DNA of 64,000 bases, from the NCBI GenBank assembly GCA_964410865.1, contig CAYPIQ010000009.1, forward strand, positions 9,585-73,584, in the 5' to 3' direction. The notes under the pieces were generated by a model. That model worked only from the letters and a program-made list of their open reading frames with translations. It was not told the DNA's origin and made no database searches. This DNA is from an uncultured Spirochaetales bacterium. Its GTDB lineage: Bacteria > Spirochaetota > Spirochaetia > JAFGDJ01. The position numbers were made by a program, and so were the translations under genes. Shown here piece by piece: positions 22,741-37,854 of the stretch. Numbering within the stretch: the stretch's first letter is position 1; every line of letters begins with the position of its first letter.

Positions 22741-22829
22741 GGTTTTTTTCCGGAAACGCCTTTTTTCTTGCCTCTTCTTCGCACCACCTGGAGAAGTTTT
22801 GCTTCTCGGACTTGAACTCGGGTAAAGCT

Positions 22830-23144: not shown

Positions 23145-23797
23145 CTACGAAAGCTGGGCGCATCTTCTCAAAACGATTGCTGTCGCGACAATGCCTATTT
23201 TTTTACCTCTTCCGGCTCTAATTTCCTCAAACCTTTGTTTAAGTTCGCCCTCATCCTTTGAGTGAAAAAGGCTCCACGCCGCCTGCACAAATAGAGCACA
23301 AAGAATCGATGGCCCTCGTTTGTGAATGTGCCCGGTTATCATCCTATCCCCCGAGAAGTCTAATCGTTGAACCATCCCCGCATAATTTGTCACTTCAACA
23401 CCGGAAGAAAATCGTGTGCCGTCTCCTATATAGGCCGAAAAAGCCAAGGCTGTTTTTATACCTACCCCGGGAATCGAGAGTAGATACGGCACATCGCTAT
23501 TTCCAGAAAGAATCTCTTTTGTTTTTTTCTCCAATTATTTAAGATCTTCCTCGCATAGGCTGATGTACTTGCACAAGCGTAAAGCTTCTTCCTTAATTTC
23601 CTTCGCAAAATGGTAAAGGTCTGTGATCCAGCTTCTATTCCGATGGTATCATTTTTGTTCAGACATGTGAAAAGCTTCTCCCTCTGTGACTCCACTGTCC
23701 CGAAGGTTAGAAGTTCCAGTTGCGTTTGGTTTTCATCCATGAAGCAAACAGTCATAGATCGTTTCTCCAAATCAATGCCAACATTCCTACCTTTCAT
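23145..23797 (-). mobile_element. IS110-family transposase, split/frameshifted and internally shortened (relic)
   Basis: N-terminal piece (23462-23797) has the DEDD-type start MKGRNVGIDLEK...IGIEAGS. C-terminal piece (23145-23534, different frame) has LLSIPGVGIKTALAFSAYIGDGTRF...NYAGMVQ...KRGPSILCALFVQAAW, typical of the IS110/IS116/IS902 C-terminal domain. The combined length is only about 220 aa against about 340 aa expected. Confidence 0.6.
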
Positions 23798-24095: not shown

Positions 24096-25193
24096 TTAAG
24101 GAGCCGCCTCGTGGATAACGATCCTCTCCACCCGTTCTCCGGATAAATAGAAGGCCAGTATATCCCTTTTAATACCTTCATCCCGGCGAACATAATAGGC
24201 GTATTCTTCCATACCTTCATTACCACCGTAACACGCCGCAATATCCGACGAAGTAGACCCGATGCCGATGCCTCGCCTTGTCCGGAAAGGGGATTGACCG
24301 GATATGATTATCCTGGAAATAGTCCCTCCTTCATCTAACACGGTGAGCCCCTTCAGAAAATAACCTCCTTCCACCGCGGAGAGATCTCCGCCGAAGGTGA
24401 TAACCGTTTCTTCCATGGATCCGCCCAGGGCCAGGGTATTACCCGTCTCTGTGTCGATGCATATGAGATCTTCAGGACCTACATCGCCCCGGGGGGCATC
24501 TTTAAAAAGTGCGGCCCCGGCCTCCGGTGCGGGTATTTTTTCCGGTTTCTGTTCGGCACTATCCGGACCGTTGACCCGGTAGTATCGATACTTCTCGCCG
24601 GGTTGATGTGCCCGCTCATCAAAGGACTTTAAGACTTCCAGGTCCAGGACGTCATCCGGCAAAAGAGTAAGGTACAGAGCGTTATTCCCGGCTTCCGCAC
24701 CGGTTTCGTTCCTGAAGACCAGGAGCACCCGCGTATCGTCGAATCCCGCCGCTTTTTCGATGCCGGTCTCTACATGCCAACCGTACGCGCCAAGCATGAG
24801 CTCCGGGGGTTCGGCACCGAAATCGAATACCAGGTAGCTTTTGGGATTAAACCAGTCCGCCCCCCAGGAAAACTTTCCCTTTCCGTCCCCGAAGGCGTCC
24901 ATGGCCGTGGAATTCTCGATGGTGCTCCAGATTCCGTGTAACCGTTTCCTTATATCCTCGGGCAGCGACAAGGGGTCGATACACTCCACATCACCGAAAC
25001 GCTCCCTGATAACCACGGTTACCGGCGTATCCGGGCCTTCACTCTCCATGTCTTCCGGTATCGCCTGTAGAGGGGCGGTTTCATCGCAAACCTTCTCTTC
25101 CTCTATCGGCTGGGGAGTCTCCTCTCCCGGTTTTGTTCCCCCGCAACAAGCAAGGATACATACAACCATGCACAGACCTGTTATTCTATTCAT
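24096..25193 (-). CDS. lipoprotein of unknown function (co-transcribed downstream of the giant protein)
   Basis: 365 aa; signal peptide with lipobox LACCGG, an acidic Pro/Glu-rich linker, then a globular region; sits 10 nt downstream of the giant ORF stop. Confidence 0.5.
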   Translation of the reverse strand: MNRITGLCMVVCILACCGGTKPGEETPQPIEEEKVCDETAPLQAIPEDMESEGPDTPVTVVIRERFGDVECIDPLSLPEDIRKRLHGIWSTIENSTAMDAFGDGKGKFSWGADWFNPKSYLVFDFGAEPPELMLGAYGWHVETGIEKAAGFDDTRVLLVFRNETGAEAGNNALYLTLLPDDVLDLEVLKSFDERAHQPGEKYRYYRVNGPDSAEQKPEKIPAPEAGAALFKDAPRGDVGPEDLICIDTETGNTLALGGSMEETVITFGGDLSAVEGGYFLKGLTVLDEGGTISRIIISGQSPFRTRRGIGIGSTSSDIAACYGGNEGMEEYAYYVRRDEGIKRDILAFYLSGERVERIVIHEAAP

Positions 25194-25203: not shown

Positions 25204-28200
25204 CTAGGCTTCCCACATATCCTGGTACCGGCGGTACCGAAGATACATCAAGTAATACGGATCGTTATTCTCATGCACATCAAAGCGTAACATCTCCAGC
25301 GTCTCGGAGCCGGGGAGATAACCGGTGTAAGAATAGGGGTCATACAGCTCATTTCCGTATACATCCCCTTCCCGGGCATGTTTATTTCCGTTGATCGTTT
25401 TCCCCACAATGATGGCCCCGTCCCGTCCGCCGTCGTTAAAATCAAGTTCACCCATCATCCCCAGTTCGGCAAAGGCGTACCTGGACAAGCCCTCGCGCCC
25501 GAATTCTCCTTTTGTTCCGATACCGTCTCCATCTATATCCAGGAAACCTTCCCGAAGTCCGATTTCGGTAAGGCGGCGAATCTGCCGGGCCGACAGGTTC
25601 GCACCGGCGGCGGTCTGTACGGCCGCAAGGGTTGAAAGATAGTAACACCCGGATTTTCGGATAACATTTTCCGAAACTCCGTTCTGATCTGCAAACAACG
25701 CAATGGAGGGACTTCGCTGTGAAATCTTCCCCAGGTCAACCGCCGTTTCCCTGTCGATATCGAAACTGAGAAGCGATTCCAGGTCCCGGCCGGTCATCGA
25801 AACCATGGGGATGATCGTGTATTCCTTTGCCTCCTCATCCCACATGACGCCGGAACCGGTCATGAGTGCGTAGGCCAGTTCGTCTTCGTCCATTCCTGAA
25901 AGGTCCGTTCCCCCCTCCCGGAGAAACATCTCCGTATAATCGGCCCCTAATATGTTCATCAGTGACCTGCTGAACGACCCGGTCGCATCCGCCTGAAGCA
26001 GATCACCGGCCTCGTTGGTCAAGTCCCTTTTCCCGTCCCAGACAACGGAACCCGAACCGTCCGCATGCACCACCAGTTTCCAGTAATCCGCGGAAGAATC
26101 GTAATGATCGTCCACGTATTCCGCCAGCCGCTGATAATCACCGGTATCCAGGGACCCGAGAACCAGATCGGACTCGGCGGATAGATACCCCGAAGGGTCA
26201 TAACCCCACCCGTAGGTTCCGGCAATAGAGCGGGCCGCCACACTGTGGTAAAGGACAGCCTCCGTTGTTTCGGCAAACTGGTCCAACACCCCGTCTACAA
26301 CCCCGTTCCGGGCGGCTTCGTGGGCCAGCGTTACTCCCAGGAGCAACTGGGCATAGTTGGCGGAACCGTTGTCCGCCAGGTGAATTGTTATGTCGTCCCC
26401 CGAAGCGACGGTATAGGCCGCAGCTCCTTCGGCCCCGTCGAACAGGAGTTCTACGGATCCTGAAATAATATCATCGTAAAGAGCTCCCAAACCGGGGATA
26501 TGTTTCAGGCTTGCCAGGGCTCTCAAGGCGGGAATGTTTTTCGCCGGTACGACGCCCTCAGCCGCGGCCAGCTCCCGTTCCACCGCGTAGGCCCAGAGAC
26601 CGTCAGAGGCCCTCAGCAGCGCGGAGGCGGATACATCGAGGCCGCCGTTTCCTAGGCCGAAGAGGCTCTCCCTGCCGAGGTGCATCTCCAGCAATCCTGT
26701 ACTGAGTAGCCCGTCGGTGAGTCCCGCGGTATTGAGGACATTCAGTGTTGTCTCGCCGGTCAACCCGTATTCCACCAGGGCGCCCGCGGCGCCACCGGCG
26801 AGACGATGCAAACCCCGAAGGTCATCTCCCATGGAACCGTGGTATCCGAACATACTGTTGTCCAGGGCTCGCGCGGCACCCGTGCCCACGGTCCTGCTCA
26901 ACAGGGAAATGCCGATGCCTTCGGACAACTGCTCCCACCTTTCCTCGTCGAAATAGATCGATCCCCCGGTTACATCCATGGCGTGTACCAGGGCGGATCC
27001 GTACATCCGTATCGAATCCGCAGTCATCCCGGTACCGATATCCACGGTTGTGTTCAACAAGCCGGCAACGGCGCCCGAGAAATTGGCATTGATGATATCC
27101 TGAAGGCTTCTCCCGGCCAGGCCACCGAGGTCGGCGGCGCCCGCTCCGAGGCAGCCGGCGGCGGCTTTTTGGCCCAGGCCGAGTAAAACCTGCCCGGGGT
27201 CAAAGCCGTTTCCCGTATCCGCCGCCGCAAACAGGACATCATCGGTAAGGTTCAACAACACCCCGCCGGTTCCCCCGGTAAGCACACCGACCGCCACTCC
27301 TGTGGCAATATCCATGACGTCCCGGTAACTGGGTGCGGCCATCAGGGTATCCGGTTCCCCGTCATTGTCCATATCGTCATCCCACAGCTTGATGTTATAT
27401 GAAGGAACCTGCAAAAGGGCCGCTCCCCTGGCCTGCTGCATCTGCTGCTCGAAAAAAGCCCCGTATATCCTGCCCGTCTCTCCGTACCCTCCGGCGGAGG
27501 CGCTTTCATCGGAGGCCGGCGGCTCCGGGGCAAAACCGACATGAAAATAGAACAATCCTTCCGGAATATCTTCCCGCCCCTCACCGGCTGAATAGGATGC
27601 ACTACTCCATGCCTTTGCTGCAGAGGCGTAGTATTCCTCCAGGGCTCCGGCCAGGTGCCGCGCGTTTCCCGCGGCATCCTCACCTTCGACGGGACCGAAG
27701 ATCATCTCCTGATATTCCTTCAGTCCTTCCCGGGCTGAAGCTATCCGTTGTCTCACCGCGGCGGAAGAGAGGTGTTTCAGAGCCGATGCGGACAGGTCCG
27801 CGGCAGGAACAAATTCCGGGGCTTTGAAATATTCATAGATATCGATTTTCTGTTCCTCGGTCTCCACCCCTCCCATGACACTTTCATCCACGGCCACCCT
27901 ACGGACGTAATGTCCTCCGGCACAGATATAACCACTGGAAAAGAGGGTCGAACCGATGGAGTCTGCTACGCCGTCATTGGCGTTTTCTATACCCAGCTCC
28001 AGCCCGTCCAGCGCGTCGAATAATGCCGCCTTCATCTGGAGAGCCGCCGCCACGGCCGCCTCTTTTGTAATCGTTTCTCTGACCATCCGCCCGTATTCCA
28101 GCATCTTGCGCCGCACCTCGGTTTCCGCCCGGGGGGCGGGCACTTGGGAACGTAACACCACGGATATATCTTCCCCCTGCAAGGTACATGTACGGACTCG

Positions 28201-31200
28201 ATCCATGATATTGTCCAGCCTCCCGGCATCGACCAGCATACTTGTTTCATCCCCCGGGCCTGTTCCCGGATACGGCGGAAGGGATATATCCGGCAGTGCA
28301 ATACGTCGCGTTTCCGGTACCTCCGCTTCAAGCACAAAGGACGCCGCTTCTCCCCTGACCCATTCTTCCGAAGCCCGGTGTATCCATTCATCCCGCCTTT
28401 CCCGGAAACTGGTCGTCTTCCGTTTCCATTCTTCGAGCCCCTCCCTGTAGGCTGTCCCGTATTCTTCCTGCCACCGTATATGCCTGCCCAGGGCGGTCGT
28501 CAGCGAGGCGTTCCACTCGGCGCGTCCTTCTTCTACAAGGGAGGTCATTCTCGTCTCCCATCTGGTCCGCCGCCGTCTAAACATCTCCAGGTCGAGCATC
28601 AGCTCTTGATATTCAAGGTCCGCGGCGTTATCGAAGGCCATCAGAGCCCCGGAGGTAATGGAATCGCCGAGCATCCGCAGCCGGTCCGCTTCCAGGAGAT
28701 CACTTCCGTAAGCATCGAGCCCTCCGGCCAGGTGTTGCAGCCGGGCATATTCGCCCTCCCGGCTCCAGGGGGGGGTAACAAAGAGCCCCGACACACCAGG
28801 TCCTGCATCCTCGACAGGAAAGCTGTCCCGATAGCGGGTATATTCCCCCGCGATGTCCGCAAGAACTTCTTCCACCCGGTGGTTGTATGAAAGGTTAAGC
28901 CGGTGCAACCCTTGCCGCCGGATTTCCTCCATTCGGGAGAGCACATCCCGCAGATCATGAAAAACATCTTCATCGGCACAGGCTCTGCTTACAGTTTCTT
29001 CGATTTCATCGGTCCACTGTAGATAATCGGTGTACACCTCGCCCCCGGCTTCCGAGGCCAGGGCGTTCAGGCAGTCCCGGATTTCCTCCGCCCCGGAGAG
29101 CTCCCCGCCCAGAACCGCGGACAATTCATCTTCCAGCTCGTACCTGGCATCCCTCTTGGAGATATATTCAGCCATGGAATCGAATAATTCCCGTCGATCG
29201 ACCAGTGTTATTCCCGAATAATCTTTTACTTCCTCGATAATCCCCTGAAGCCTGGAAGCCTTGACCTTCTCTTCCACCGCCGCCCCCGCGATCATTGCGG
29301 CCTGGGCTAGCATGGCTATACCGGCGGGAATGCTCACCACAGCGGCTATCAGGGCGGCTCCGGTGACCGCGTAACCCGAGGCGATGATACCGAGGGCGGT
29401 GGCCGCCTCCCGGGCATTCCCCATCCGGGCGGTCACATCCGGCAGTGCTGCGGCGTATCCGGCTTCCCTGAATTCCTGGAGAACCAGATTCCGCATCGGC
29501 ACACTGAACAGGCCGCCTTGCATCAGCACCCGGAACCCGGCATAGGCTGCCGTTCCGCGCATGGCGTTCCAGGCTTCATTTCCGGTATGCTCGTAGATGT
29601 ATTCCTCCGTAACCGGAGGGTTCCGGGTTTCTTCGAAGAGTCTCCGCAGTGCCGAATCATCACCGGGAGCGTTAAAGAGACGCCTCGTCTCATCATCCTC
29701 GCCGATATATTCCGCCGGCGAGAGAATATCCCACTTTGTACCCCGGGCTTCGTAGGAATAGGCAAGCATACACTGTTTGAGGCATTGGTCACCCCCGGCT
29801 GCCAGGGAATCGATCCAGGTATCGAGAAAAGCGGCGTCCACGGGGACGGGAGATTGCTCATCCTGGAACATGCCGGCCAACTCTTCCAGAGTATATTCCG
29901 TATACACACTCATGTCGACACCTTCGGAATCTCCGGCCGGATCATAGTCCTCCGGCAGGTCGAAGAGATCCTGCAGTTCACCTTTCATCAGCTCGTTCGC
30001 GTCCGCGACCATCTCCGCATTGTCGGCTACCTTCTCTTCGAGGATTTCCTGCAGCCGGCAATACAAGAAGAGTTCCTGTGATTCCCGCTCGATGTCCCCG
30101 GCCAGGGAAGAAAGAACCTGGTCATGAATGAGATGGTCCTGGGCACCGGAGGCCAGGGATGAAAGTGTGTCGATTGATGTCTGCACCCCGGTATACTCGG
30201 CGAGGAGCTCTTCCAGGTGCTTCCGGGGAGAAGACCCGCCGTCCTCGTATCCGCAGACCGCGTACTCGAATATCTCCCTGGCCTGCTGCCGTTCGAGCAG
30301 CGCGTCCCTGTACCGGTCATACAAACCGGTAACCCTCCCCCTGCAGTCTGATGAATCCGTCAGGCACTCATCCAGGTCCGAAAGGGTACGGGTCACCACT
30401 TCCATGGCCGTATCGTATGCCTCATCAGCAGCCGACAACTCTTCTTCCGCCGGTAAAACCGTTTTCTCATACAGTTCGGCGGCATCGTATTCATCCATCA
30501 GGTCCAGGGTTTCACGGCAGCGAAGCAGTTCTTCAACCAGCCGGGCCCCCTCGGCCTCCACTGCCGAAGGGTCTTCGTACCCGGACACCGCTTCAGGGTC
30601 CCGGGCTTCAATGGCGGAGGTAAGGACCTGCATAACCGCGTCATGGACGGTAAAGTGATATTCCTCTCCGTCATGGTCTATACAAAAGGAATGAAACCCC
30701 GACGGCTCAGCCAAGCCCTTGGCCCGGTTCAATACATCCAGCATTGTTTCGAGTTCAACGAGCCGGGAGCGTTCCACCTCCACTTTTCCCCCGGCCGCTG
30801 CAACCGCGGCCGTCCGGGCCGCTTCGGCACCTCCGTATCCCTGGTATACGGCCTTGCACATTTCCCTTTCAAAAAGCCCGCTCAATACCTGCCGATCCTC
30901 GAGACGGTCGAGGTACTCTTCCAATTCACCGTCGATATAACGGCAGTATTCCGGCAGCAGATGCCCCTCCATGAAATCGTCGAACATGTTTGCGTATACC
31001 GCATCCTCCGTCGCGGCTAGGCGGTCCAGTTCCGTTTGGGCTTCCCGCTCCAGTTGTTCGATATCCGAAGAGAGCTGCTCGATACTACGGGTACACTCCT
31101 GGATTTCCGCTTCCAGTACCCGTACATCCGCCGCGGTATCCCATTCCTCCACTTTTGACGTCAGATACATCCGGGCACATCGCCGGTAGAACCCCGGCTC

Positions 31201-34095
31201 CGGGGGTATTCCTTCGATAAAATCGGCCGCTTCCCGAAGACCGGTAATCGCGCGGAGCTCGGAACAGAATACATCGATACTCCGCCTATCAGCCGGTGAT
31301 ATCTCCCCAGGGGGTGTGTCTTCTGGAAAGAGCAGGGACAAATCCGCATACTTTTCTTCATACTCGTTGAAAAATCCCGTATTCTCCAACCGGGCCACTT
31401 CGGCGGACCTGTCCATAAATAGACGAATCAACGGAAACCCGTTCAGGGTAATCATCCTGTCCCCGTTCAGGTATTCTCGAAAGGAATCATCCTCCAGGTA
31501 TGACAACGAGGACAACGAAGCACCGCCTTCTATATCCGTCAGGGCCGTCTCCAGGCCGCCGCGGATCCTCCGAAGGGCTTCCAGGTATTCTTCCGCCTCT
31601 GCGACCCCGGAAAAATAATCGGTTTCATACAGAAACCGCCCCGGTATGGATACTTCATCATCCTTTACCTCGCCGTTATCACCGCAGAGGAGTATGTACT
31701 CCTGTACGGCCGCCGCCTCTCCACCTATTTGTTCAAGCAGGCGCAGAAGGAGGACTTGTTCCCGGGTATCCCGGATATCCGCCCTATCGGGGACCGGCAG
31801 ATCATCCCACTCCGCCAGGAGAGCCAGGGAATCCGCGGAGGCCTGGGTCTGATACAGCTCCCGGACGGCGTCGTCGTTCCCCGTCAGGTAGAGAACACCG
31901 ATTCTACGGCGATGGATTTCTCCGGCCATATTTCGAGCGGCATGTTCCAGTTCATACTCGAACCGCCGCCGAAGATAGTCCTTCATCCCCTCAGGGGCTT
32001 CGGTGTATTCTCCGTATACCCTGCAGAGGGAGATAAAGGTCCGGGAGCCTGGTTGGACACCGGCCTCCTGGGCAAGCATGAGCTCGAATTCCGCGGGGTC
32101 CGGTGGGTTGTCCCAATCCGGGACGCATCCGGTAAGGCCGTTCAGGGAGGCAATACATTCGGATAGAGAAAGGATTCCGTCCGCCGTTCCCCCGGTCAGG
32201 GCTTCCGTAACGGCGTCCCGTACTTCGGTCGCCGTCTCGACCTGCTCCCGGAGGGATTCCCACACAAAGGCGGAGAGCACGCGCTCGTATTCCGTACCGC
32301 CGCCGTCGTTGTCGTCTATGAAAAGGCTATACAATTCCCCGCTCATGGTTTCTATCGATTCTTCATATACCGCGGAGTCGGGAAGGAGGATCCGTTCACA
32401 TGCCTCTTCGTACCTTCTCCTCGCCTCCGCCAGGGATCCCGCCGCGGCATCCGCCGTATCCCGGGCTCGCTCATATTCTTTCCTTGCTTCTTCTACCCTT
32501 GAATCCATGGTTTGTAATTCCCCCAGGGCTTCCCTGTATCGTTTCAGTGCTTCTTCGGCTGCCTGTATACTCGATTCATAGGCCGTCCGGGTATCGGCTT
32601 CGGTCTGGCGGGAAGAAGTCCGGTTTTCCGCGTAGTCCACCACTCCCCGGACAATCTCGATTTGCTCTTCCAGCTTCCGCAGACGAATTTTGAGGCGCTC
32701 GATCTCCAGTTCCACGCCCGAGGCCGGGACCTCACCGTATCCTGACAGGGCGGTAGTCGACAGTTCCGTCAGCATTCCGGCGGCGTCCTCCGCCGCCTCT
32801 CGCTGGGATTCCTCGATGGCGGTCCAGGAAGCGATATCTTCTTCCAGTGCTTCCCCGTCTTCCTCTCCGGAAGAAAGCATCTCTTCGAGAAACGCGACGG
32901 TTTCTCCGGCCAAGCGCTCATACTGCCGTGCCTGGCGGAACAGAGAGACAAGCTGATCTATCTCGGCCTTTTTTTGGGCGGTTTCTTCATCCCGCCGCTT
33001 CACCAGCTCATCCTGAAAATCCCGGATCTGCAGTTCGATCTCCTCCTCCCGCCGGTCGAAGACCTCCAGCCCCTGCCGGTAATAAAGGTTCATTTCCTCG
33101 AACCAGTCGGCGCGTCTTTGTCTCAGGGTTTCAAAGAGTCCCTGCCATTGTTCTTCACCCTCGCCATACTGCTCCAGGGCGGTACGCTCCCATGCCGCCG
33201 CGGAGCCGAGGAGCCGTTCCTCACCATGGCTCCATGCATCCAGGCCGCGCTCAAAGGCTTCGCGGTAATTCTCCTCAAAGGCACAGAAGGCCCGTTCCAG
33301 CTCCCCGGGATCCTGCAGGCCTTCAGCGTGGATACCGCCGGAGATCAGATTCTCGGCCTCATCCAAATCTTCCCGGATCGAGGTAAAGAGCTCATCTCCC
33401 ACCGCCCCGGCCGATCGTTCTTCTACTTTTTTCTTCAGTGAGCGGGTATCCTGTAATAGTTCCTCCAGAAAGTCAGCCTGCAGGCGGGCAAAGATCTGCT
33501 CGTACATGGCATCAACGGAAGCCCGACGTGACTCGAGGACTTCTTCTATAATCGAATCGAAGCCGCTGGAATCAGTAACACCCGAAGCCTCGAGGTTGTT
33601 CGCCGCTGCCCTGCGGGCGGCTTCTTCCCAGGTGGTTATCGCTTCTTCCTTGAGGGCCAAGTGAGCCTCCCTGAAGGCGGCATCGGATGCGGAGGGAGAG
33701 GATATATCAATAACCGGGTCGCCGACCGAATCGCGCAGAATATCCCCGGTGTCCGGGTCTTCCGTATAGAGGAGCCTTCGCCGGCATTCCTTCATTGCCC
33801 GGAGGTACGCGTACAAATCGGATTCAGGCAGATGGGAACCTATCCTGCCCTGGACCCACTCACGGAACCTCCTGTCCATGATAACCCGCATGGGCCCCTC
33901 TTCATCACCTCCGATCCCGGCCATCCCTACCTCAGCCAGGCGCTCCCATTCACCTACGGTCCGTTCCCTGTCGGCCAGGGCGAGATACACGGAAAAACGG
34001 TCTTCTTCGCCGTCATGTCGATAACCGAAGTCCTGTGGTACCAGAGTACCTCCGAAACCGACGAGGACAACCGCCGCAATGATTCTGTTCCACAT
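25204..34095 (-). CDS. giant (2963 aa) coiled-coil-rich envelope protein with N-terminal signal/anchor, a central helical-hairpin membrane anchor and a Gly/Ala/Thr-rich non-coiled-coil C-terminal region; function unknown
   Basis: Single uninterrupted 8.9-kb ORF with a GGGAGGG RBS 5 nt upstream. The N-terminal hydrophobic segment is MWNRIIAAVVLVGFGGTLV. About 1500 aa are of E/A/R/L-rich heptad-like sequence. A roughly 40-aa hydrophobic hairpin (ALGIIASGYAVTGAALIAAVVSIPAGIAMLAQAAMIAGAAV) lies near aa 1560, about 29280-29400 in nucleotide coordinates. The C-terminal roughly 1000 aa are Gly-rich. Confidence 0.7.
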   Translation of the reverse strand: MWNRIIAAVVLVGFGGTLVPQDFGYRHDGEEDRFSVYLALADRERTVGEWERLAEVGMAGIGGDEEGPMRVIMDRRFREWVQGRIGSHLPESDLYAYLRAMKECRRRLLYTEDPDTGDILRDSVGDPVIDISSPSASDAAFREAHLALKEEAITTWEEAARRAAANNLEASGVTDSSGFDSIIEEVLESRRASVDAMYEQIFARLQADFLEELLQDTRSLKKKVEERSAGAVGDELFTSIREDLDEAENLISGGIHAEGLQDPGELERAFCAFEENYREAFERGLDAWSHGEERLLGSAAAWERTALEQYGEGEEQWQGLFETLRQRRADWFEEMNLYYRQGLEVFDRREEEIELQIRDFQDELVKRRDEETAQKKAEIDQLVSLFRQARQYERLAGETVAFLEEMLSSGEEDGEALEEDIASWTAIEESQREAAEDAAGMLTELSTTALSGYGEVPASGVELEIERLKIRLRKLEEQIEIVRGVVDYAENRTSSRQTEADTRTAYESSIQAAEEALKRYREALGELQTMDSRVEEARKEYERARDTADAAAGSLAEARRRYEEACERILLPDSAVYEESIETMSGELYSLFIDDNDGGGTEYERVLSAFVWESLREQVETATEVRDAVTEALTGGTADGILSLSECIASLNGLTGCVPDWDNPPDPAEFELMLAQEAGVQPGSRTFISLCRVYGEYTEAPEGMKDYLRRRFEYELEHAARNMAGEIHRRRIGVLYLTGNDDAVRELYQTQASADSLALLAEWDDLPVPDRADIRDTREQVLLLRLLEQIGGEAAAVQEYILLCGDNGEVKDDEVSIPGRFLYETDYFSGVAEAEEYLEALRRIRGGLETALTDIEGGASLSSLSYLEDDSFREYLNGDRMITLNGFPLIRLFMDRSAEVARLENTGFFNEYEEKYADLSLLFPEDTPPGEISPADRRSIDVFCSELRAITGLREAADFIEGIPPEPGFYRRCARMYLTSKVEEWDTAADVRVLEAEIQECTRSIEQLSSDIEQLEREAQTELDRLAATEDAVYANMFDDFMEGHLLPEYCRYIDGELEEYLDRLEDRQVLSGLFEREMCKAVYQGYGGAEAARTAAVAAAGGKVEVERSRLVELETMLDVLNRAKGLAEPSGFHSFCIDHDGEEYHFTVHDAVMQVLTSAIEARDPEAVSGYEDPSAVEAEGARLVEELLRCRETLDLMDEYDAAELYEKTVLPAEEELSAADEAYDTAMEVVTRTLSDLDECLTDSSDCRGRVTGLYDRYRDALLERQQAREIFEYAVCGYEDGGSSPRKHLEELLAEYTGVQTSIDTLSSLASGAQDHLIHDQVLSSLAGDIERESQELFLYCRLQEILEEKVADNAEMVADANELMKGELQDLFDLPEDYDPAGDSEGVDMSVYTEYTLEELAGMFQDEQSPVPVDAAFLDTWIDSLAAGGDQCLKQCMLAYSYEARGTKWDILSPAEYIGEDDETRRLFNAPGDDSALRRLFEETRNPPVTEEYIYEHTGNEAWNAMRGTAAYAGFRVLMQGGLFSVPMRNLVLQEFREAGYAAALPDVTARMGNAREAATALGIIASGYAVTGAALIAAVVSIPAGIAMLAQAAMIAGAAVEEKVKASRLQGIIEEVKDYSGITLVDRRELFDSMAEYISKRDARYELEDELSAVLGGELSGAEEIRDCLNALASEAGGEVYTDYLQWTDEIEETVSRACADEDVFHDLRDVLSRMEEIRRQGLHRLNLSYNHRVEEVLADIAGEYTRYRDSFPVEDAGPGVSGLFVTPPWSREGEYARLQHLAGGLDAYGSDLLEADRLRMLGDSITSGALMAFDNAADLEYQELMLDLEMFRRRRTRWETRMTSLVEEGRAEWNASLTTALGRHIRWQEEYGTAYREGLEEWKRKTTSFRERRDEWIHRASEEWVRGEAASFVLEAEVPETRRIALPDISLPPYPGTGPGDETSMLVDAGRLDNIMDRVRTCTLQGEDISVVLRSQVPAPRAETEVRRKMLEYGRMVRETITKEAAVAAALQMKAALFDALDGLELGIENANDGVADSIGSTLFSSGYICAGGHYVRRVAVDESVMGGVETEEQKIDIYEYFKAPEFVPAADLSASALKHLSSAAVRQRIASAREGLKEYQEMIFGPVEGEDAAGNARHLAGALEEYYASAAKAWSSASYSAGEGREDIPEGLFYFHVGFAPEPPASDESASAGGYGETGRIYGAFFEQQMQQARGAALLQVPSYNIKLWDDDMDNDGEPDTLMAAPSYRDVMDIATGVAVGVLTGGTGGVLLNLTDDVLFAAADTGNGFDPGQVLLGLGQKAAAGCLGAGAADLGGLAGRSLQDIINANFSGAVAGLLNTTVDIGTGMTADSIRMYGSALVHAMDVTGGSIYFDEERWEQLSEGIGISLLSRTVGTGAARALDNSMFGYHGSMGDDLRGLHRLAGGAAGALVEYGLTGETTLNVLNTAGLTDGLLSTGLLEMHLGRESLFGLGNGGLDVSASALLRASDGLWAYAVERELAAAEGVVPAKNIPALRALASLKHIPGLGALYDDIISGSVELLFDGAEGAAAYTVASGDDITIHLADNGSANYAQLLLGVTLAHEAARNGVVDGVLDQFAETTEAVLYHSVAARSIAGTYGWGYDPSGYLSAESDLVLGSLDTGDYQRLAEYVDDHYDSSADYWKLVVHADGSGSVVWDGKRDLTNEAGDLLQADATGSFSRSLMNILGADYTEMFLREGGTDLSGMDEDELAYALMTGSGVMWDEEAKEYTIIPMVSMTGRDLESLLSFDIDRETAVDLGKISQRSPSIALFADQNGVSENVIRKSGCYYLSTLAAVQTAAGANLSARQIRRLTEIGLREGFLDIDGDGIGTKGEFGREGLSRYAFAELGMMGELDFNDGGRDGAIIVGKTINGNKHAREGDVYGNELYDPYSYTGYLPGSETLEMLRFDVHENNDPYYLMYLRYRRYQDMWEA

Positions 34096-34219
34096 ACATT
34101 CCCTCCCATAAGGAAATTTATACTCTCCATATAAAGAGACGCCCTTAAGGGAGGCGCTGCTTCGAATAAAAAATATTTTTTTTTAAAAAAGCAAAAGAGG
34201 CAACCGGAGAGTTATCTAT

Positions 34220-34735
34220 ATGCGGGACACCAGTATGAAAAACCTTTTAATACATAAAAGCGCCCGGTTTCTGCCGATGGTAGTGCTCTGTGCCGCCGCG
34301 TGCACGAACGGTGAAAGACACGGGCAGGGCGAAGATCTCTACGATGATGCGCGGAGATTATACCTGGAGGAGCGGTACGATGAAGCTCTGTGTATTGCCG
34401 AGACCGGGGTCGACGAAAACCCGGGGAATCTTTCCTGGATATGCCTGTACGCCAGATTACTGCTGCTGACCGGGCGCCCTCGATTTGCCGAGGGGGTCAT
34501 CAGAGAAGGACTGGAGATACGAACGGAGGACTGTGAACTCCTTCTCCTCCTCGGCCGGGCGGCCTATGCCCTGGGAGATACGGCCTCGGCTCTGCGTCTT
34601 CTCGACGGGGCGGCAGACACCACTGTTTTGGAAGAAGTATACCTGGAGAAAGCCCGGATATTCCTCGATTTCGGAGAAGAAGAAAAGGCTGAAGCGGCGG
34701 TAAGAAAGGCCCTGCTTCTAAGGGGGCTGGAATGA
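34220..34735 (+). CDS. TPR-repeat lipoprotein
   Basis: 171 aa; signal peptide with Cys lipobox (VVLCAAAC), then TPR-like helical repeats (LYDDARRLYLEERYDEALCIAE...); ATGA overlap with the next gene. Confidence 0.6.
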   Translation: MRDTSMKNLLIHKSARFLPMVVLCAAACTNGERHGQGEDLYDDARRLYLEERYDEALCIAETGVDENPGNLSWICLYARLLLLTGRPRFAEGVIREGLEIRTEDCELLLLLGRAAYALGDTASALRLLDGAADTTVLEEVYLEKARIFLDFGEEEKAEAAVRKALLLRGLE

Positions 34736-35166
34736 AAAAATTACTCCTTCTCCAGGCAGTCTTCCTCCTCCTCGGCTGCAGCAGTCTCCCCGTCCGACGA
34801 ATCCTGGATGTGTATGTTGAAAAGGAGATGCGCTCTTCCATCCACCGCATGCTGTTTCACACCGGCAGCGTCAACATTGTTACCGGTGGAATGGGAAAGG
34901 TCCAGGCAGACGAGATAGCCGAACAGATATTTACCAGGAGAAACGCATCGATTCAAAACCCTCAAGGCCGGGCGGAAGTCCATATCACCCTGCATGAAAC
35001 CCCGTTACGAAAATCCTACGGTACCCTTAACTCCGTAACGGTGATCGCGGATATCGTCACCGACCATACTATCGCTTCGGTATTTTTCACCGAGGAAACA
35101 AAGAACAGTCTACAATCGGAGGCCTATATTTATGCCGTGTTCCGCCGCTGCTTTTCGACTCTCTAG
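34732..35166 (+). CDS. small lipoprotein of unknown function
   Basis: 144 aa; MKKLLLLQAVFLLLGCSS lipobox; translationally coupled between the TPR protein and the TolC-like gene. Confidence 0.5.
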   Translation: MKKLLLLQAVFLLLGCSSLPVRRILDVYVEKEMRSSIHRMLFHTGSVNIVTGGMGKVQADEIAEQIFTRRNASIQNPQGRAEVHITLHETPLRKSYGTLNSVTVIADIVTDHTIASVFFTEETKNSLQSEAYIYAVFRRCFSTL

Positions 35167-36520
35167 TCCTACGGTTCTCTTTCTTTTTGCCGCAATCTCT
35201 GCTTCGTCATCCGCCCTTGAACTGGACTTACACGCCGCCGTTGAACTCGCCCTGCGTAATAATCGGGATATACGAAACGGACTCATTGAACTACAAACCG
35301 CGGATAAGAGGTTGGGTGCTCCTATTCTTGACAGGATTCCGTCCGTTACCGTCGGTATATCCGGTTCCGGCCGCACCGTTCGTTTTTCACCGGACAGCCG
35401 ATCATGTTCCTTTACCCTGGCCATCGAGCAGATACTCTTCAACGGGGGAGAGACTGGGCGGGAACTGGAAGACCTGCGTCATGAAATGTCTATCCGTACG
35501 GCACGACACCGGCATATGGAAACAAGCATAATCCTGCTGACGGTTTCCCGGTACGCCCGGGTCCTGGGACTCATTGAAAAGCTTCACATCACCGAGCAAC
35601 AGCTCCAGGCGGCCCGCCGGCAGCTGTCCCTGGCGGAGAAAGAATACAGTCAGGGGGAGTTGCCTGAACTCGAACTGCTCCTCCTGCGGATATCCGTGGG
35701 GCTACAGGAAACATTACTCTTGGAGACCGAACAGGAGCTGAAGAAAGCCCGTCTCGATTTCAGAACGCTCCTGGGCCTGGAAAAGGATCCTGAGCTTACA
35801 GGCCGCTTGAACACCGATTATTCGGGTTTCCTGGATCCTTCTCCGGCGGAAACATATATCGACCTGATGGAGGCCCGCTCTCCCGAGTTCATGGATATGA
35901 GGATGCAGATCCACGGCCTTTCGCTCAGGTTGGAACAGTGGTGGTTATACCGGGTGCCTGTAATTACTCTTCTTGCGAACCTCGATATGGCCGGAGAAGA
36001 TATCGAGAATCTGAATCTAAGCTTTTCTGCCGGACTTCGGTTCGATGTACAGGGCAGTACGTCTCCGGCCGTATCTTTTCAGACGGAATATCTGCCGCCC
36101 TTTCAGAGAAGTATACACGGCTCCGGCTCCGTACACCTCTCGCCGAAAATGGAGGCCCTCCGGGACAGGGAAGATTTGATCCAAAGATTGACGGCCCTTG
36201 AAGAGGAGTACGCCGTCATGGTCGAAAAAGAATCCATGAATGTGGAGTCTCTTCTTCTGGATATCACCGCTTCAAAGGAGAGACTCGAGCTGGGCAGGGA
36301 GAAGCTTCTTGTCCTCCAACGCCGGGCTACCCTGGCCGAAAAACAGCTCGCCCAGGGAGAGATTACCCGCAGCGAGTTCCTGGAATCCCGGGCGGTGCAG
36401 GCCAACCATAATCTGGAACTATTGCAGGAAATTATCGACCTCTTTACCGCTGAACTCGAACTCATGATGACGGCGGGGCTTTCTCCGGATATGTCGGCAA
36501 TCAGGGAAATAATGTTATGA
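35132..36520 (+). CDS. TolC-like outer membrane efflux protein (OMF family)
   Basis: 462 aa; signal peptide then AAVELALRNNRDIRNGLIELQ, typical of the OEP N-terminus; two repeated coiled-coil/beta-barrel halves. Confidence 0.7.
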   Translation: MPCSAAAFRLSSPTVLFLFAAISASSSALELDLHAAVELALRNNRDIRNGLIELQTADKRLGAPILDRIPSVTVGISGSGRTVRFSPDSRSCSFTLAIEQILFNGGETGRELEDLRHEMSIRTARHRHMETSIILLTVSRYARVLGLIEKLHITEQQLQAARRQLSLAEKEYSQGELPELELLLLRISVGLQETLLLETEQELKKARLDFRTLLGLEKDPELTGRLNTDYSGFLDPSPAETYIDLMEARSPEFMDMRMQIHGLSLRLEQWWLYRVPVITLLANLDMAGEDIENLNLSFSAGLRFDVQGSTSPAVSFQTEYLPPFQRSIHGSGSVHLSPKMEALRDREDLIQRLTALEEEYAVMVEKESMNVESLLLDITASKERLELGREKLLVLQRRATLAEKQLAQGEITRSEFLESRAVQANHNLELLQEIIDLFTAELELMMTAGLSPDMSAIREIML

Positions 36521-37854
36521 TCCGCAGCTTGTCCCTTACGGTATTTTTCCTGTTCTGCGTGGCACTCCTTTCGTGCGGCGGCAGGGCAAAGGAAGAACCG
36601 GCGGAGGCGCCTCCCCCGGTGGTGGAAATAATCAAAGTAGAATACAGCGATTACCGCCCACATATCGACACTACAGGGGTTATCGGGGTTACCGGAAAGG
36701 CCGATGTTTTCCCGGTCTCGGAAGGCCTGATTACCGCTTTGCATGCCGAAGAAGGGGATGCAGTGTTCAAGGGGCAGGAATTGGGGAAGCTGGATGACAC
36801 CGACTTACTGATGCGCCGCCGTGAGCTGGAAGCTGAGGCGGATATTATGGAAAGCCGGCTCCGTCTTGCCCGGGCACGTCTTCTTGACGGAGAACGGGAG
36901 GTGGAAAGCAGGCTCAAGAGGCTCGAACTGGACCGGCGCAACCTGGAGGAACTCCGCAGGCAGGTGTCGGAAGCCCGGACCGTGTATAACAACAAAAAAG
37001 CCCTGTACGAACTGGGCGGTGTAAGTGAACGAGAACTGCAACAGTTGAAGGATAATCTCCTGTCGGCTGAAAACAACCTGTACCAGGGAACGGGGCGCTA
37101 CGAAATAACGAGTATAGGATTTAGGGACCTGGACATACTCAACGCCGGGTTCGAGATACCCGTAGACCCCGTTCGACGGGAAGAGGTGCTCATCAGGCTT
37201 AATACCGCCACGCTGCGGGCCGAGGTAGACTCGGCGGAGGCCGAGCTGGAAAAAGTCCGGATCCGGCTGCAGTCGGCGGATCTTCTGCTGCGCAAAACCC
37301 GGCTCCGGAGTCCGATTTCCGGGATTATAGGAGCACGGATGCTCGGCCTAGGTGAAAAAGCCGGGCCGGATACACCGGTGTTCACCGTATTCGCCGACGG
37401 TGCGTACTATGCGGTTGCCCGGGTCTCCGAGTCGGACATGGACAAACTTACTCCGGGGCTGCCCGCGCGTATAAGGTGTTGCGGCCGCCTGGAATGTACG
37501 GGCCGCCTGGAGCGGATTTCGCCCTACGTCGACCCGGAATCTCACTCCGTTGAGGTAAAGATCCTTATCGCGGATCATATTCCGGGTCTGCGGCCGGGGA
37601 TGTATGCCGAAATCAGCATGTTTACCGGACCGACGGAAAAAATCATCCGCTTGCCTCGCTCCGCCCTCAACGACAAAGGCATGATTTTTGTGTATGACCG
37701 GGGACATGTGTTTTCCCGGAAGCCGGAATACCGGCTCATCGACGGATCAACCCTAGCAGTTGTGGAAGGCCTTACGGAAGGAGAGTTTGTATGCGAAAGA
37801 ACGGACGGATATATACGGGACGGCGCCGAGGTACGACCGCGGCAACTCTTTTGA
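36517..37854 (+). CDS. efflux membrane-fusion (periplasmic adaptor, HlyD/RND-MFP family) protein
   Basis: 445 aa; N-terminal anchor, biotinyl/lipoyl-like hairpin (IGVTGKADVFPVSEGLITALHAEEGDAVFKGQELGKLD), long coiled coil, beta-barrel and membrane-proximal domain; ATGA overlap with the OMF gene. Confidence 0.75.
   Translation: MIRSLSLTVFFLFCVALLSCGGRAKEEPAEAPPPVVEIIKVEYSDYRPHIDTTGVIGVTGKADVFPVSEGLITALHAEEGDAVFKGQELGKLDDTDLLMRRRELEAEADIMESRLRLARARLLDGEREVESRLKRLELDRRNLEELRRQVSEARTVYNNKKALYELGGVSERELQQLKDNLLSAENNLYQGTGRYEITSIGFRDLDILNAGFEIPVDPVRREEVLIRLNTATLRAEVDSAEAELEKVRIRLQSADLLLRKTRLRSPISGIIGARMLGLGEKAGPDTPVFTVFADGAYYAVARVSESDMDKLTPGLPARIRCCGRLECTGRLERISPYVDPESHSVEVKILIADHIPGLRPGMYAEISMFTGPTEKIIRLPRSALNDKGMIFVYDRGHVFSRKPEYRLIDGSTLAVVEGLTEGEFVCERTDGYIRDGAEVRPRQLF

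Follow-up and report, generated by a model that had tools for sequence, protein, structure and literature searches.

Organization of the Locus

In the stretch of 64,000 nucleotides of DNA from an uncultured Spirochaetales bacterium analyzed here (in the following, the window), the minus strand bears a single uninterrupted open reading frame (25204..34095) which starts with an ATG about 7 nt downstream of a GGGAGGG Shine-Dalgarno sequence and encodes a protein of 2963 aa plus stop codon. The orthologue at locus L014, also of 2963 aa, is 85% identical without any gap, and comparison of the two genes gives a dN/dS value of 0.23 over the whole length, indicating purifying selection along the full protein. 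Hence, the giant gene is not a chance ORF, in line with a preliminary description of the region which had reported an intact 8.9-kb ORF with a good ribosome-binding site and could not name a family for it. Indeed, the giant protein gave no match in Pfam, NCBIfam, PHROGs or PDB, and protein and gene neighbourhood together have no curated-family match. Starting 10 nt after the giant-gene stop codon, a lipoprotein of 365 aa is encoded exactly where it had been seen before (24096..25193, minus strand; lipobox ILAC|C, own AGGAGG Shine-Dalgarno sequence). It is 81% conserved beside the L014 orthologue at a dN/dS of 0.39 and has no family or PDB match (Pfam, NCBIfam, PDB). The locus is flanked on this side by debris of IS21 and IS110 elements (22680-23797), the previously noticed IS graveyard, and the assignment to an accessory region also appears appropriate, as the flanks of the window and L014 diverge right past the lipoprotein gene.

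On the other side, an AT-rich intergenic region of 124 nt (34096..34219), in which no sigma-70-like site was called, separates the giant gene from the divergently transcribed eight-gene envelope operon of the earlier description (34220-46440, plus strand). Its first genes (34220..35166) encode a TPR lipoprotein of 171 aa (TPR matches, lipobox) and a 144-aa ORF, both conserved in L014, and are followed by the genes for a TolC-like OMF (462 aa, OEP match) and an RND MFP lipoprotein (445 aa, HlyD_D23 match) at 35132..37854, two paralogous Ig-like Big_5 lipoproteins of 486 and 457 aa (37791..40621; PF13205, lipoboxes) and the permeases RND1 (40634-43552) and RND2 (43549-46440, gene model by analogy with L014). 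The latter two genes are joined by an ATGA overlap, the encoded permeases being divergent in sequence and matching Pfam ACR_tran at 7e-115 and 6e-54. With ACR_tran permeases, an MFP scoring above the cut-off of TIGR01730 and an OMF of the OEP type all present, the operon encodes an RND tripartite system. Against the curated NCBIfam efflux subfamilies, however, RND1 and RND2 reach only 291 and 126 bits at a cut-off of 1250 and the OMF 53 bits at a cut-off of 225. Scores this far under the efflux-pump cut-offs fit a specialized job of the system.

Architecture of the Giant Protein Family

Homologues range from 2764 to 3931 aa and share an N-terminal (residues ~1-700) and a C-terminal region (~1830-2720). 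Four elements make up the family architecture, namely a leader of the Sec type, a helical N-module bearing two Trp ladders, a C-module and a polymorphic tail of ~260 residues. In the window protein, residues 1-24 (34024..34095; this and all following protein segments on the minus strand) form the hydrophobic leader that had been claimed, with a Kyte-Doolittle peak of 1.69, and are probably a Sec signal peptide or signal anchor. Canonical Sec-type signal peptides are found at this position in 12 of 12 homologues, with a different leader end (...TLVPQ|D in the window versus the canonical ...LFA|Q type in relatives). Since all relatives have signal peptides, an extracytoplasmic location of the giant protein is likely, which supports the suggested surface or periplasmic placement.

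The acidic N-module (residues ~25-700; 31996..34023) is delineated by BLASTP segments shared with all homologues and by invariant columns in alignment A1, and its HMM matches 81 of 159 family proteins. Within it, Trp ladder 1 (residues ~281-345; 33061..33255) consists of the invariant W288, W302, W317 and W331 spaced by 14-15 residues. Trp ladder 2 (residues ~1840-1912; 28360..28578), where many members show a second match of the N-module HMM, comprises W1846, W1861, W1875, W1890 and W1904, likewise in invariant columns. Glu accounts for 11-19% of the residues up to about position 2000, followed by 10-16% Gly and 12-18% Ala over 2001-2600, so that the composition shift from Glu-rich to Gly/Ala-rich is as described. 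Regarding the ~1500 residues considered coiled-coil-like, clear helical amphipathic periodicity is present at ~200-600 and 1800-2000 but not elsewhere, where Pro plus Gly amount to 8-13%. Nor does the notion of a possibly beta-rich C-terminal third agree with the low-confidence model of residues 2178-2700, which is mostly helical.

The hydrophobic helical hairpin previously proposed as central anchor does exist at residues 1564-1608 (29272..29406; Kyte-Doolittle 2.15, turn SIPAG), is the sole long hydrophobic stretch in the middle of the protein and shows a dN/dS of 0.16. It is found in P0001-P0004, however, and among 75 full-length members of the family only 11 possess it, making it a clade-specific rather than an organizing feature. 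The family-conserved hydrophobic segment is instead one that had been overlooked, a Gly/Ala-rich hairpin at residues 2263-2284 (27244..27309; Kyte-Doolittle 1.67) within the C-module, which is kept in 13 of 13 homologues examined, the equivalent segment always following the APSxR motif.

This C-module of ~520 residues (2178-2699; 25999..27564), defined by alignments A1 and A4, is the signature of the family, with GE(L/T)GR, LWDD, APSxR, GLLE(L/M)HLG, GxGGxD, HExxR and YDSSxDYW as conserved motifs. A search with the profile of these residues returned at least 1040 representative protein clusters at 50% identity, 541 of them at E ≤ 1e-30. The loci from named organisms (Oceanispirochaeta, Alkalispirochaeta, Treponema, Spirochaetia) all belong to Spirochaetota except for two MAGs labelled otherwise; two or more copies of the giant gene per genome occur in the family, and many copies are found within single metagenomes. 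No PDB sequence match to the C-module was obtained, and the structure model is of low confidence (pLDDT 56.9). Weak structural matches to CapP, ArdC, M32, IrrE and SprT-like proteins recur in two libraries. Like minimal zincins (IrrE/ImmA M78, SprT/ArdC-like, CapP), the family has a motif with His and Glu and a downstream conserved Glu/His, whereas the window protein bears HEAAR (residues 2592-2596; 26308..26322) in place of the zinc-binding HExxH of these metallopeptidases. Thus, HEAAR had correctly been described as not being an HExxH zinc site, although it is part of a family-wide motif: among 157 modules, HExxR is present in 125, HExxH in 22 and [YF]ExxR in 6, and E2593 is invariant across 13 aligned homologues.

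Polymorphic Tails and Exported Partner Proteins

While N- and C-modules align in all homologues, the last ~260 residues do not. Clustering of 143 tails resulted in 10 singletons and eight multi-member clusters (among them clusters of 72, 23, 22, 5, 4, 3 and 2 members), with tails of the M23, M15 or Cys/His type. Some are bona fide peptidoglycan peptidases of the M23 and M15 families: M15_4 is matched by the P0054 tail (3e-12), M23 by the P0013 tail at 28.0 bits, just below the Pfam cut-off of 28.7, more weakly by the P0007 tail, and also by a 587-aa protein of L002 according to the matches precomputed in the collection. The window tail (residues 2700-2963; 25207..25998) is of the Cys/His type, as deduced from tail clustering, jackhmmer, which joined 37 such tails with it, and alignment A5. 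In the latter, comprising 24 tails, G-C and His are invariant and the Pro of (N/D)P is nearly so; in the 40-row jackhmmer alignment, N-P is present in 34 and G-C in 37-38 rows. The corresponding residues in the window are C2817 (25645-25647), H2906 (25378-25380) and, at the (N/D)P position, D2919 (25339-25341).

Judging by this C/H/(N/D)P motif and by analogy of position with the tails of paralogues, the window tail is a putative peptidoglycan amidase or peptidase. The earlier statement that no catalytic domain can be recognized is, hence, probably wrong, given G-C...H...(N/D)-P in 37 related tails and M23 or M15 domains at the same place in paralogues. The conserved order, with a Cys at the start of a predicted helix followed by His and Asn/Asp, resembles papain-like cysteine peptidases and amidases. 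The underlying tail model is poor (pLDDT 49.9), and searches of Pfam, PDB sequences and Foldseek gave no match of the window tail to a known papain-like family, nor was any other peptidase profile or structure matched. As the sole profile to recur, Pfam DUF261 is weakly matched by 6 of the 24 related tails, the window tail not being among them.

Exported partner genes adjoin the giant genes. A small gene whose product has a signal peptide or a lipobox lies within 0-300 nt 3' of the effector-like ORFs examined in all cases but one (17 partner genes in the window, L001-L003, L009, L010, L014, L015, L017 and L098), the exception being L005, where no exported partner was called downstream of the giant gene. 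Accordingly, the 365-aa lipoprotein of the window is better read as a variable, tail-associated, immunity-like periplasmic partner than as a structural co-component and is a candidate cognate immunity or partner protein. Covariation of tails and partners was seen in three comparisons and was absent in one or two. The L010_17867 and P0009 tails pair with homologous partners (L010_19913 and L002_20785, E 5e-27), and the homologous tails of the window and L014 likewise have homologous partners. The tail type of L009_17598 and P0011, judged similar by eye, with no BLAST match between them, pairs with the related partners L009_19196 and L015_18485 (E 2e-5). In contrast, L009_14138 and P0007 have M23 tails sharing 39% identity, but no similarity is seen between the respective partners. 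As an immunity protein, the window lipoprotein would be large with its 365 aa.

Two Alkalispirochaeta loci contain arrays of orphan C-module cassettes. In L009 and L010, the giant gene is followed by repeated units of C-module plus tail and a small exported protein, lacking both N-module and signal peptide and each preceded by a conserved DNA element. Orphan cassettes 3' of the giant gene are present in the relatives L009, L010 and L002 and absent from the window and L014.

Linkage to RND Operons

The association of giant gene and RND/Big_5 operon extends to very distant homologues, so that the synteny comparison proposed in the preliminary description turned out positive. In metagenomes, an RND permease gene is located directly upstream of the giant gene in 68 of 76 informative loci, the 80 loci in total coming from a few related samples and not being phylogenetically independent. 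At these 68 loci, an MFP–Big_5–Big_5–RND–RND operon has the giant gene as its last cistron, with a median gap of 4.5 nt between the RND2 stop codon and the giant-gene ATG (commonest values -8, -4 and +1). Coupling to the RND system is thus at operon level. The giant gene is co-directional and directly 3' of RND2 in L002, L005, L015/16, L017 and L098, and divergent from the RND operon in the window, L014, L001 and L006, and the Big_5 pair recurs in all related operons that were read completely. An adjacent RND operon is absent in about 10% of the loci (the P0007-like clade, L007, L010 and L099).

The linkage has survived both inversion to the divergent layout and a decrease of protein identity to ~20%. 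Together with the overlapping or nearly abutting codons at most loci, this persistence argues in favour of giant protein and RND system being direct partners, physically or functionally, over loose co-regulation. Still, the association could reflect co-regulation, self-protection or joint assembly instead of export.

Proposed Function and Alternative Explanations

Giving it not quite an even chance, we favour the reading of the giant protein as a polymorphic effector directed at peptidoglycan, which would have its immunity protein in the lipoprotein and be handled by the specialized RND system; its toxicity and RND-dependent export are what we infer from the above findings. According to this model, the N-terminal leader would carry the giant protein over the inner membrane, and the co-transcribed lipoprotein would restrain the Cys2817/His2906/Asp2919 tail in the periplasm of the producer. 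The neighbouring OMF/MFP/Big_5/RND machine, whose genetic link is evident, might then take up the periplasmic protein and move it across the outer membrane or mount it there. More speculatively, the Gly/Ala hairpin of the C-module could mediate membrane insertion or translocation and the zincin-like HExxR/H subdomain might do some processing, until the tail reaches a neighbouring bacterium and cuts the wall of that cell. The near-constant tie to the RND operon suggests an undescribed route of toxin delivery. In its furthest-reaching form, which is possible but on the whole rather doubtful, the OMF-MFP-Big_5-Big_5-RND-RND operon would be a dedicated two-step apparatus for protein secretion or delivery, an RND-powered counterpart of type 1 systems, bringing Sec-exported polymorphic effectors of ~300 kDa from the periplasm across the outer membrane for interbacterial antagonism.

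We know of no RND transporter moving proteins, let alone ones of ~320 kDa. The substrates known for RND pumps are small molecules and lipids, which would favour a polymorphic, Sec-exported peptidoglycan hydrolase with immunity partner that gets out in some other way, for instance by lysis, in outer-membrane vesicles or through an unlinked secretin, with the RND/Big_5 operon lending support, for example by protecting the producer, repairing the envelope or exporting a small co-factor. All evidence from tail polymorphism and partner genes applies to such an effector as well, and the loci without adjacent RND operon as well as the lack of the term RND in a survey of trafficking modes (Zhang et al., 2012) agree with it. 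However, start and stop codons of the giant gene and RND2 overlap or nearly abut at most loci and the linkage is kept through inversion and down to ~20% identity, leaving this variant unlikely in our view. A similarly low probability is assigned to an endogenous envelope component, that is, a periplasmic scaffold or a factor remodelling the cell's own wall within an RND trans-envelope complex, for example in opening the sacculus for assembly or in membrane-wall tethering, with the lipoprotein as regulator or inhibitor. Sec leader, hydrophobic hairpins, long helical regions, invariant Trp ladders, full-length purifying selection and an operonic arrangement with an envelope-spanning machine would all suit this role, as would hydrolase tails acting in self-remodelling. 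In contrast, the swapping of M23, M15 and several Cys/His tails is unexpected for a housekeeping enzyme, as are two or more copies per genome and arrays of N-terminally truncated cassettes, each with a different exported partner; moreover, the window locus is bordered by IS debris, where the gene order shared with the closest relative ends.

A giant adhesin or S-layer-associated protein for attachment to surfaces or hosts would be in line with the very large size, the signal peptide and the acidic character, and Ig-like Big_5 lipoproteins near a TolC-like channel are loosely reminiscent of type 1-secreted giant adhesins. It is nevertheless highly improbable, considering that tandem Ig, cadherin, RTX or other adhesin repeats are missing, that self-BLAST of the giant protein revealed no internal repeats, that no adhesin or S-layer profile was matched and that the conserved parts are the C-module and enzyme-type tails and not binding repeats. 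Tape-measure and ejection proteins of phages are long and helical with Gly-rich hydrophobic segments and often M23 or other lysin ends. Despite this resemblance in layout, the IS fragments near the locus and the weak DUF261 matches of some related tails, a mobile-element or phage remnant deserves hardly any credence: PHROGs are matched neither by the lipoprotein nor by the giant protein and two of its homologues, a tblastn search of 50,697 phage records with the C-terminal 1164 aa came back empty, BFVD gives no significant structural match, phage genes are absent from all neighbourhoods read, and virion proteins do not typically bear a Sec signal peptide.

Comparison With Known Systems

The favoured reading as an effector with immunity partner recalls the polymorphic toxin-immunity systems, such as CdiA/CdiI, surveyed by Zhang, de Souza, Anantharaman, Iyer and Aravind (2012; PMC3482391). 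Shared features are a very large Sec-targeted protein with a conserved region, here of presumed delivery function, and a variable C-terminal domain, here putatively enzymatic, a conserved sequence just before the variable tail (here ...YDSSxDYW...), a small gene directly downstream, here for a candidate cognate partner, and, in some genomes, arrays of orphan C-terminal cassettes. The giant protein family differs in that the partners are exported or lipidated and not cytoplasmic, that the tails identified so far (M23, M15_4) are of types acting on peptidoglycan and not on nucleic acids, and in the link to an RND tripartite system. Pfam and NCBIfam searches with the window protein and eight homologues gave no match to TPS/FHA, RHS, PAAR, VgrG, LXG/WXG, MuF, PrsW or TcdB/TcaC. 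Likewise, no haemagglutinin, TPS or POTRA/Omp85 match was found in the giant protein or its neighbours; unlike CdiA, the giant protein lacks a CdiB-like partner.

The cell wall is the target of the T6SS-delivered peptidoglycan amidases and peptidases of the Tae/Tai, Tse1/Tsi1 and Tlde1/Tldi1 pairs, the periplasmic immunity proteins of which bear a signal peptide or lipobox and have their genes beside that of the effector. A small C-terminal domain with a Cys-His signature, an adjoining exported partner and a presumed cell-wall target are comparable in the giant family, whereas T6SS genes or adaptor domains are lacking at the giant gene, the protein is a ~320-kDa fusion predicted to pass through the periplasm of its own producer, and the tail could be matched to Tae, Tse or NlpC/P60 families neither by sequence nor by fold. 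Type 1 secretion of LapA-type adhesins and MARTX toxins by ABC-MFP-TolC systems likewise combines a giant protein with a tripartite set of transporter, MFP and OMF. Here, however, a pair of RND permeases takes the place of the ABC transporter, two extra Big_5 lipoproteins are present, and an N-terminal Sec signal is found instead of a C-terminal secretion signal, with no RTX match. Adjacent, overlapping genes for an RND permease pair together with MFP and OMF are also known from MdtABC and MuxABC-OpmB, and the best NCBIfam equivalog matches of the window operon include MdtC and MdtB/MuxB. Yet, scores are 4- to 10-fold under these family cut-offs, two Big_5 lipoprotein genes are inserted between MFP and RND genes, and in most relatives a putative effector gene of ~9 kb is translationally coupled to RND2.

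To our knowledge, Spirochaetota are not known for contact-dependent weaponry. Should the effector model hold, this phylum would be armed with giant effectors against the cell wall in very large numbers and great diversity, delivered by a route outside the current catalogue, namely a tripartite machine of the RND type that includes two Ig-like lipoproteins. Protein export by RND transporters would be unprecedented and would establish a type of secretion system and a class of polymorphic-toxin trafficking that are both new. The findings also bear on how proteins cross the unusual outer membrane of spirochaetes and on the role of the many divergent RND operons that are left unassigned in bacterial genomes. 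Even on a conservative view, the N-module with its Trp ladders, the C-module with HExxR and the Cys/His tail superfamily are new conserved domains meriting profile models, and the family accounts for recurrent 'hypothetical' genes of ~9 kb in gut and sediment metagenomes.

The giant gene and its product

The giant gene occupies positions 25204-34095 of the minus strand as one uninterrupted ORF encoding 2963 residues from its ATG, with a GGGAGGG Shine-Dalgarno sequence about 7 nt upstream, in line with the intact frame and good ribosome-binding site reported in the preliminary description. Judged by its conservation, this ORF is a real gene: the orthologue P0002 from a metagenomic contig (locus L014) is identical in length and 85% identical in a gap-free alignment, and dN/dS between the two comes to 0.23 for the whole gene, with values of 0.15-0.27 in all individual segments. 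A chance ORF or a pseudogene is ruled out by this orthologue and these ratios. Ten nucleotides after the stop codon, as already stated, follows the lipoprotein gene, a 365-residue ORF (24096-25193) with its own AGGAGG and an N-terminus, MNRITGLCMVVCILAC↓CGG, representing a lipoprotein signal.

A Kyte-Doolittle scan recovers the hydrophobic N-terminus (residues 1-24) and the mid-protein hairpin (residues 1564-1608, value 2.15, two helices flanking an SIPAG turn) and adds a third hydrophobic segment at residues 2263-2284 that was absent from the first reading. The compositional shift is likewise reproduced, Glu accounting for 11-19% up to about residue 2000 and Gly and Ala for 10-16% and 12-18%, respectively, over residues 2001-2600. 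Two structural claims of the preliminary description fared less well. A coiled coil over about 1500 residues could not be confirmed, as the periodicity of amphipathic helices stands out only near residues 200-600 and 1800-2000 and Pro plus Gly amount to 8-13% elsewhere. The suggestion of a possibly beta-rich C-terminal part is not borne out by a model of residues 2178-2700, which is mostly helical at low confidence.

No entry in Pfam, NCBIfam, PHROGs or the PDB sequences matches the giant protein or the lipoprotein. Scans of the three family collections with both proteins and up to eight homologues returned sub-threshold noise only (SesA, Ferritin, PgrA), no homologue being assigned to a family, and PDB searches with the whole giant protein, its tail (residues 2700-2963), the lipoprotein and the profiles of C-module (A4) and tail (A5) gave no match.

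Extent of the protein family

Besides the query and the 85% orthologue, word-indexed searching with the giant protein found eleven distant homologues of 2764-3931 residues and 21-30% identity, which align by BLASTP at residues ~1-700 and ~1830-2720, while the last ~260 residues are not common. Word-indexed searches with the tail alone or the A4 profile returned zero or one match, probably a low-complexity word problem. That the family is in fact large, despite these empty searches, follows from exhaustive HMMER scoring of the A4 profile (residues 2178-2699) against 1.84 billion representatives, which retrieved 1040 proteins at E ≤ 1e-3, of which 541 reach E ≤ 1e-30. Among the 150 top-scoring matches, half bear the N-module (residues ~25-700) as well. 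Most of the short matches are, to judge from their starts, N-terminally truncated gene calls. The alternative of true short paralogues is ruled out for them, as they have no signal peptide and begin inside conserved giant-protein sequence; genuine short cassettes are found at loci L002, L009 and L010.

Family loci with an organism name come from two Oceanispirochaeta, two Alkalispirochaeta, Treponema and several Spirochaetia/Spirochaetota MAGs. Non-spirochaete labels are confined to one Planctomycetota MAG and one Armatimonadia MAG (L001/L008, i.e., VRUG01000028.1, and P0141), all other named sources being Spirochaetota; mis-binning or horizontal transfer could account for these two.

Modular architecture

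A canonical signal peptide, e.g., MKKRTSFLLISCLLMPVISASLFA↓Q, is present in 12 of 12 homologues, the leader of the window protein being less typical. The N-module is acidic and helical and carries an invariant Trp ladder (W288, W302, W317 and W331; residues 281-345, positions 33061-33255) with a spacing of 14-15 residues. A second ladder (W1846, W1861, W1875, W1890 and W1904; residues 1840-1912, positions 28360-28578) lies ahead of the C-module. As this spacing corresponds to about four helical turns, all ladder Trp side chains would point to one side of a long helix; the ladders could not be assigned to a known repeat family. The central hairpin is confined to the closest relatives of the window protein (P0001-P0004) and occurs in only 11 of 75 full-length members. 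The C-module carries the near-invariant motifs GE(L/T)GR, LWDD, APSxR, GLLE(L/M)HLG, GxGGxD and YDSSxDYW, and its Gly/Ala hydrophobic hairpin directly after APSxR is conserved family-wide.

Variable C-terminal tails

Clustering of 143 tails of at least 120 residues gave groups of 72, 23, 22, 5, 4, 3, 2 and 2 members plus singletons, the window tail and that of its orthologue forming a two-member cluster of their own. Several tails resemble peptidoglycan peptidases: M23 was found in the tail of P0013 (Pfam, 28.0 bits, just below the cut-off of 28.7), in that of P0007 (a weak Pfam match; the NCBI name of this protein is M23 metallopeptidase) and, from precomputed hits on record, in a 587-residue short paralogue at L002, whereas P0054 ends in M15_4 (Pfam, 3e-12). 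M23-type tails also characterize the P0007-like Treponema clade (L003, L004, L018-L020, L022-L024, L026 and L027).

Iterative HMM searching grouped 37 other tails with the window tail, among them the tails of P0005, P0008, P0010 and P0011. In an alignment of 24 such tails, invariance is limited to a Gly-Cys pair and a His, after which comes an (Asn/Asp)-Pro that is almost invariant; the window equivalents are C2817, H2906 and D2919-P2920. This order of Cys, at the start of a predicted helix, His and Asn/Asp is the same as in papain-like peptidases and amidases. Six of these related tails give weak matches to Pfam DUF261 (best 3.5e-5), a Borrelia family of unknown function. As a fold search with the window tail, based on a poor model (pLDDT 49.9), was empty, the putative enzyme assignment rests on the motif and on a position shared with known peptidoglycan peptidases.

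A further tail class (P0009, P0014 and L010:17867-19909) ends in H-G-S...S-D-G-C-(P/F)-(I/V), a pattern that brings to mind the active site of L,D-transpeptidases (YkuD). This likeness is only a lead, and Pfam gives no YkuD match for these tails.

Partner genes and cassette arrays

At nearly all loci with an available 3' end, a small gene for a product with signal peptide or lipobox lies 0-300 nt behind the effector-like gene; such exported partners were found in the window and at L001, L002, L003, L009, L010, L014, L015, L017 and L098, while none was called at L005. The partner sequences are mutually unrelated apart from three matched comparisons. The window and L014 have homologous tails with homologous partners, the only setting in which the window lipoprotein is conserved; the tails of L010_17867 and P0009 are homologous, and so are the partners L010_19913 and L002_20785 (E 5e-27); and the partners L009_19196 and L015_18485 match at E 2e-5 beside L009_17598 and P0011 tails that are alike by eye only, BLAST giving no match. 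One counter-example to this pairing was encountered, i.e., two M23 tails with dissimilar partners.

The window has a single effector-partner pair. At the two Alkalispirochaeta loci (L009 and L010), two or three further units stand downstream of the giant gene, each consisting of a C-module with a different tail plus a small exported protein and lacking both N-module and signal peptide, a layout of orphan cassettes as known from polymorphic toxin loci. Ahead of all five orphan C-module cassettes lies a conserved DNA element of 110-300 nt and 76-87% identity (within L009:9300-9800, 13800-14300 and 17300-17800 and L010:13250-13750 and 17800-18300) that reads ...ATSGPKGLLSDRHRR... in translation and may be a recombination, boundary or regulatory element. 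The 587-residue protein of L002 (L002:22249-24012) is free-standing and lacks the giant N-region, beginning in the GLLELHLG portion of the C-module; its M23 tail shares 56% identity with the P0013 tail, and a lipoprotein gene of its own comes next. It is a genuine short paralogue or cassette within a co-directional RND locus.

Linkage to a divergent RND operon

Upstream of the giant gene, across a 124-nt AT-rich spacer, the eight-gene operon already recognized begins on the opposite strand, encoding in this order a TPR lipoprotein, a 144-residue ORF, a TolC-like outer membrane factor (OMF), an MFP lipoprotein, two Big_5 lipoproteins and two RND permeases. The permease genes (40634-46440) are joined by an ATGA overlap (43549-43552), and the mechanical call of the RND2 ORF, from a TTG at 43279, probably exceeds the gene by 270 nt. 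With 291 bits (RND1) and 126 bits (RND2) versus NCBIfam cut-offs of 1250, and 53 bits for the OMF versus 225, the MFP alone passes a generic model. On these scores, the transporter is unusual in itself and its permeases stand extremely far from the curated efflux families. Every operon that was read completely encodes the two Big_5 lipoproteins. Next to RND2, immediately downstream and in the same orientation, lies a hybrid regulator gene (46534-48555; receiver-GAF-PAS-HWE/HisKA_2 histidine kinase) whose product may regulate the RND/giant system. At L015/L016, genes for a response regulator and a hybrid kinase come after the partner of the giant gene.

The preliminary description had proposed examining whether giant gene, lipoprotein and RND operon co-occur. 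The first and the last do, even more tightly than the window suggests, while the lipoprotein drops out beyond the 85% orthologue. The divergent layout recurs at L014, L001 (27% identity) and an Oceanispirochaeta locus, whereas L002, L005, L015/L016, L017 and L098 show a one-strand order of MFP, Big_5, Big_5, RND, RND and giant gene, with spacing ranging from gaps of 131 nt to overlaps of 25 nt. A metagenome scan seeded with the N-module yielded 80 loci, derived from a few related metagenomes and not independent samples, of which 68 have an RND permease immediately upstream and co-directional and four are too short to judge; the remaining eight, all of the P0007-like Treponema clade, show no RND permease in at least 3.5 kb upstream. 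Over the 68 loci, the RND2 stop and the first ATG of the giant gene are separated by a median of 4.5 nt (interquartile range -5 to 22), and the commonest distances of -8, -4 and +1 point to translational coupling. An adjacent RND operon is absent from the second genome copies L007 and L010, from L099 and from the P0007 clade, which would fit one machine serving several effectors. Two loci of the latter clade, L003 and L004, have a small HTH_3 regulator gene upstream in place of the operon.

Possible function and relation to known systems

As a tentative reading, to which we give somewhat less than an even chance, the giant protein, judging from the leaders, would be exported by Sec, and its Cys/His tail would act as a putative peptidoglycan amidase or peptidase that the co-transcribed lipoprotein neutralizes in the periplasm of the producer. 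Motif, position and adjacency, together with partial covariation, suggest the hydrolase and its neutralization. The RND/MFP/OMF/Big_5 machine, whose genetic coupling is directly observed, might then export the periplasmic giant protein or mount it in the outer membrane, a role for which we know of no precedent. More speculatively, the hairpin and the HExxR subdomain of the C-module could serve membrane insertion, and perhaps processing, on delivery to a neighbour. The central hairpin in the clade of the window protein might provide an extra membrane tether; being absent from most family members, it is not essential to the core mechanism.

Rather unlikely, in our estimation, is an effector for which the RND operon, instead of exporting it, plays a supporting role. 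We give a similarly small chance to an endogenous scaffold for envelope or cell-wall remodelling working with the RND complex, a reading that loses weight through the swapping of tails, the multiple copies and the orphan cassettes. It is improbable that the giant protein is an adhesin or S-layer protein, as it has neither repeats nor such domains. Hardly credible is a phage-derived, tape-measure-like remnant; this origin was rejected, as PHROGs, tblastn against 50,697 phage records and BFVD were all negative.

Closest in working mode to the proposed effector mechanism are polymorphic toxin-immunity systems, specifically periplasm-acting peptidoglycan effectors with exported immunity proteins. 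All named delivery classes fail: no TPS/FHA, RHS, PAAR/VgrG, LXG/WXG or RTX domain was found, and neither an ABC exporter nor a CdiB partner. The term 'RND' never occurs in the 2012 survey of polymorphic-toxin trafficking modes (Zhang et al., PMC3482391), and a full-text literature search found neither the family nor any RND-linked protein effector described. We see some chance, albeit a minority one, of the RND operon being a truly novel apparatus for protein secretion.

Flanking regions

Downstream of the lipoprotein gene, the insertion-sequence remnants noted before are IS21 IstB fragments and an IS110-family transposase in two pieces, within a stretch of 48% GC (22680-23797). At this position, the orthologous 85% contig encodes SecA, called as two adjacent genes, and a transketolase, so that synteny breaks exactly after the lipoprotein gene. 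Unrelated to the giant protein, a minus-strand catabolic and transport cluster (11222-22787) encodes an aldehyde:ferredoxin oxidoreductase, two amidohydrolases, a dihydroorotate-dehydrogenase-like Fe-S protein, a PnrA/Bmp-type ABC transporter and an HpcH/HpaI aldolase, and looks like a nucleoside or pyrimidine utilization locus.
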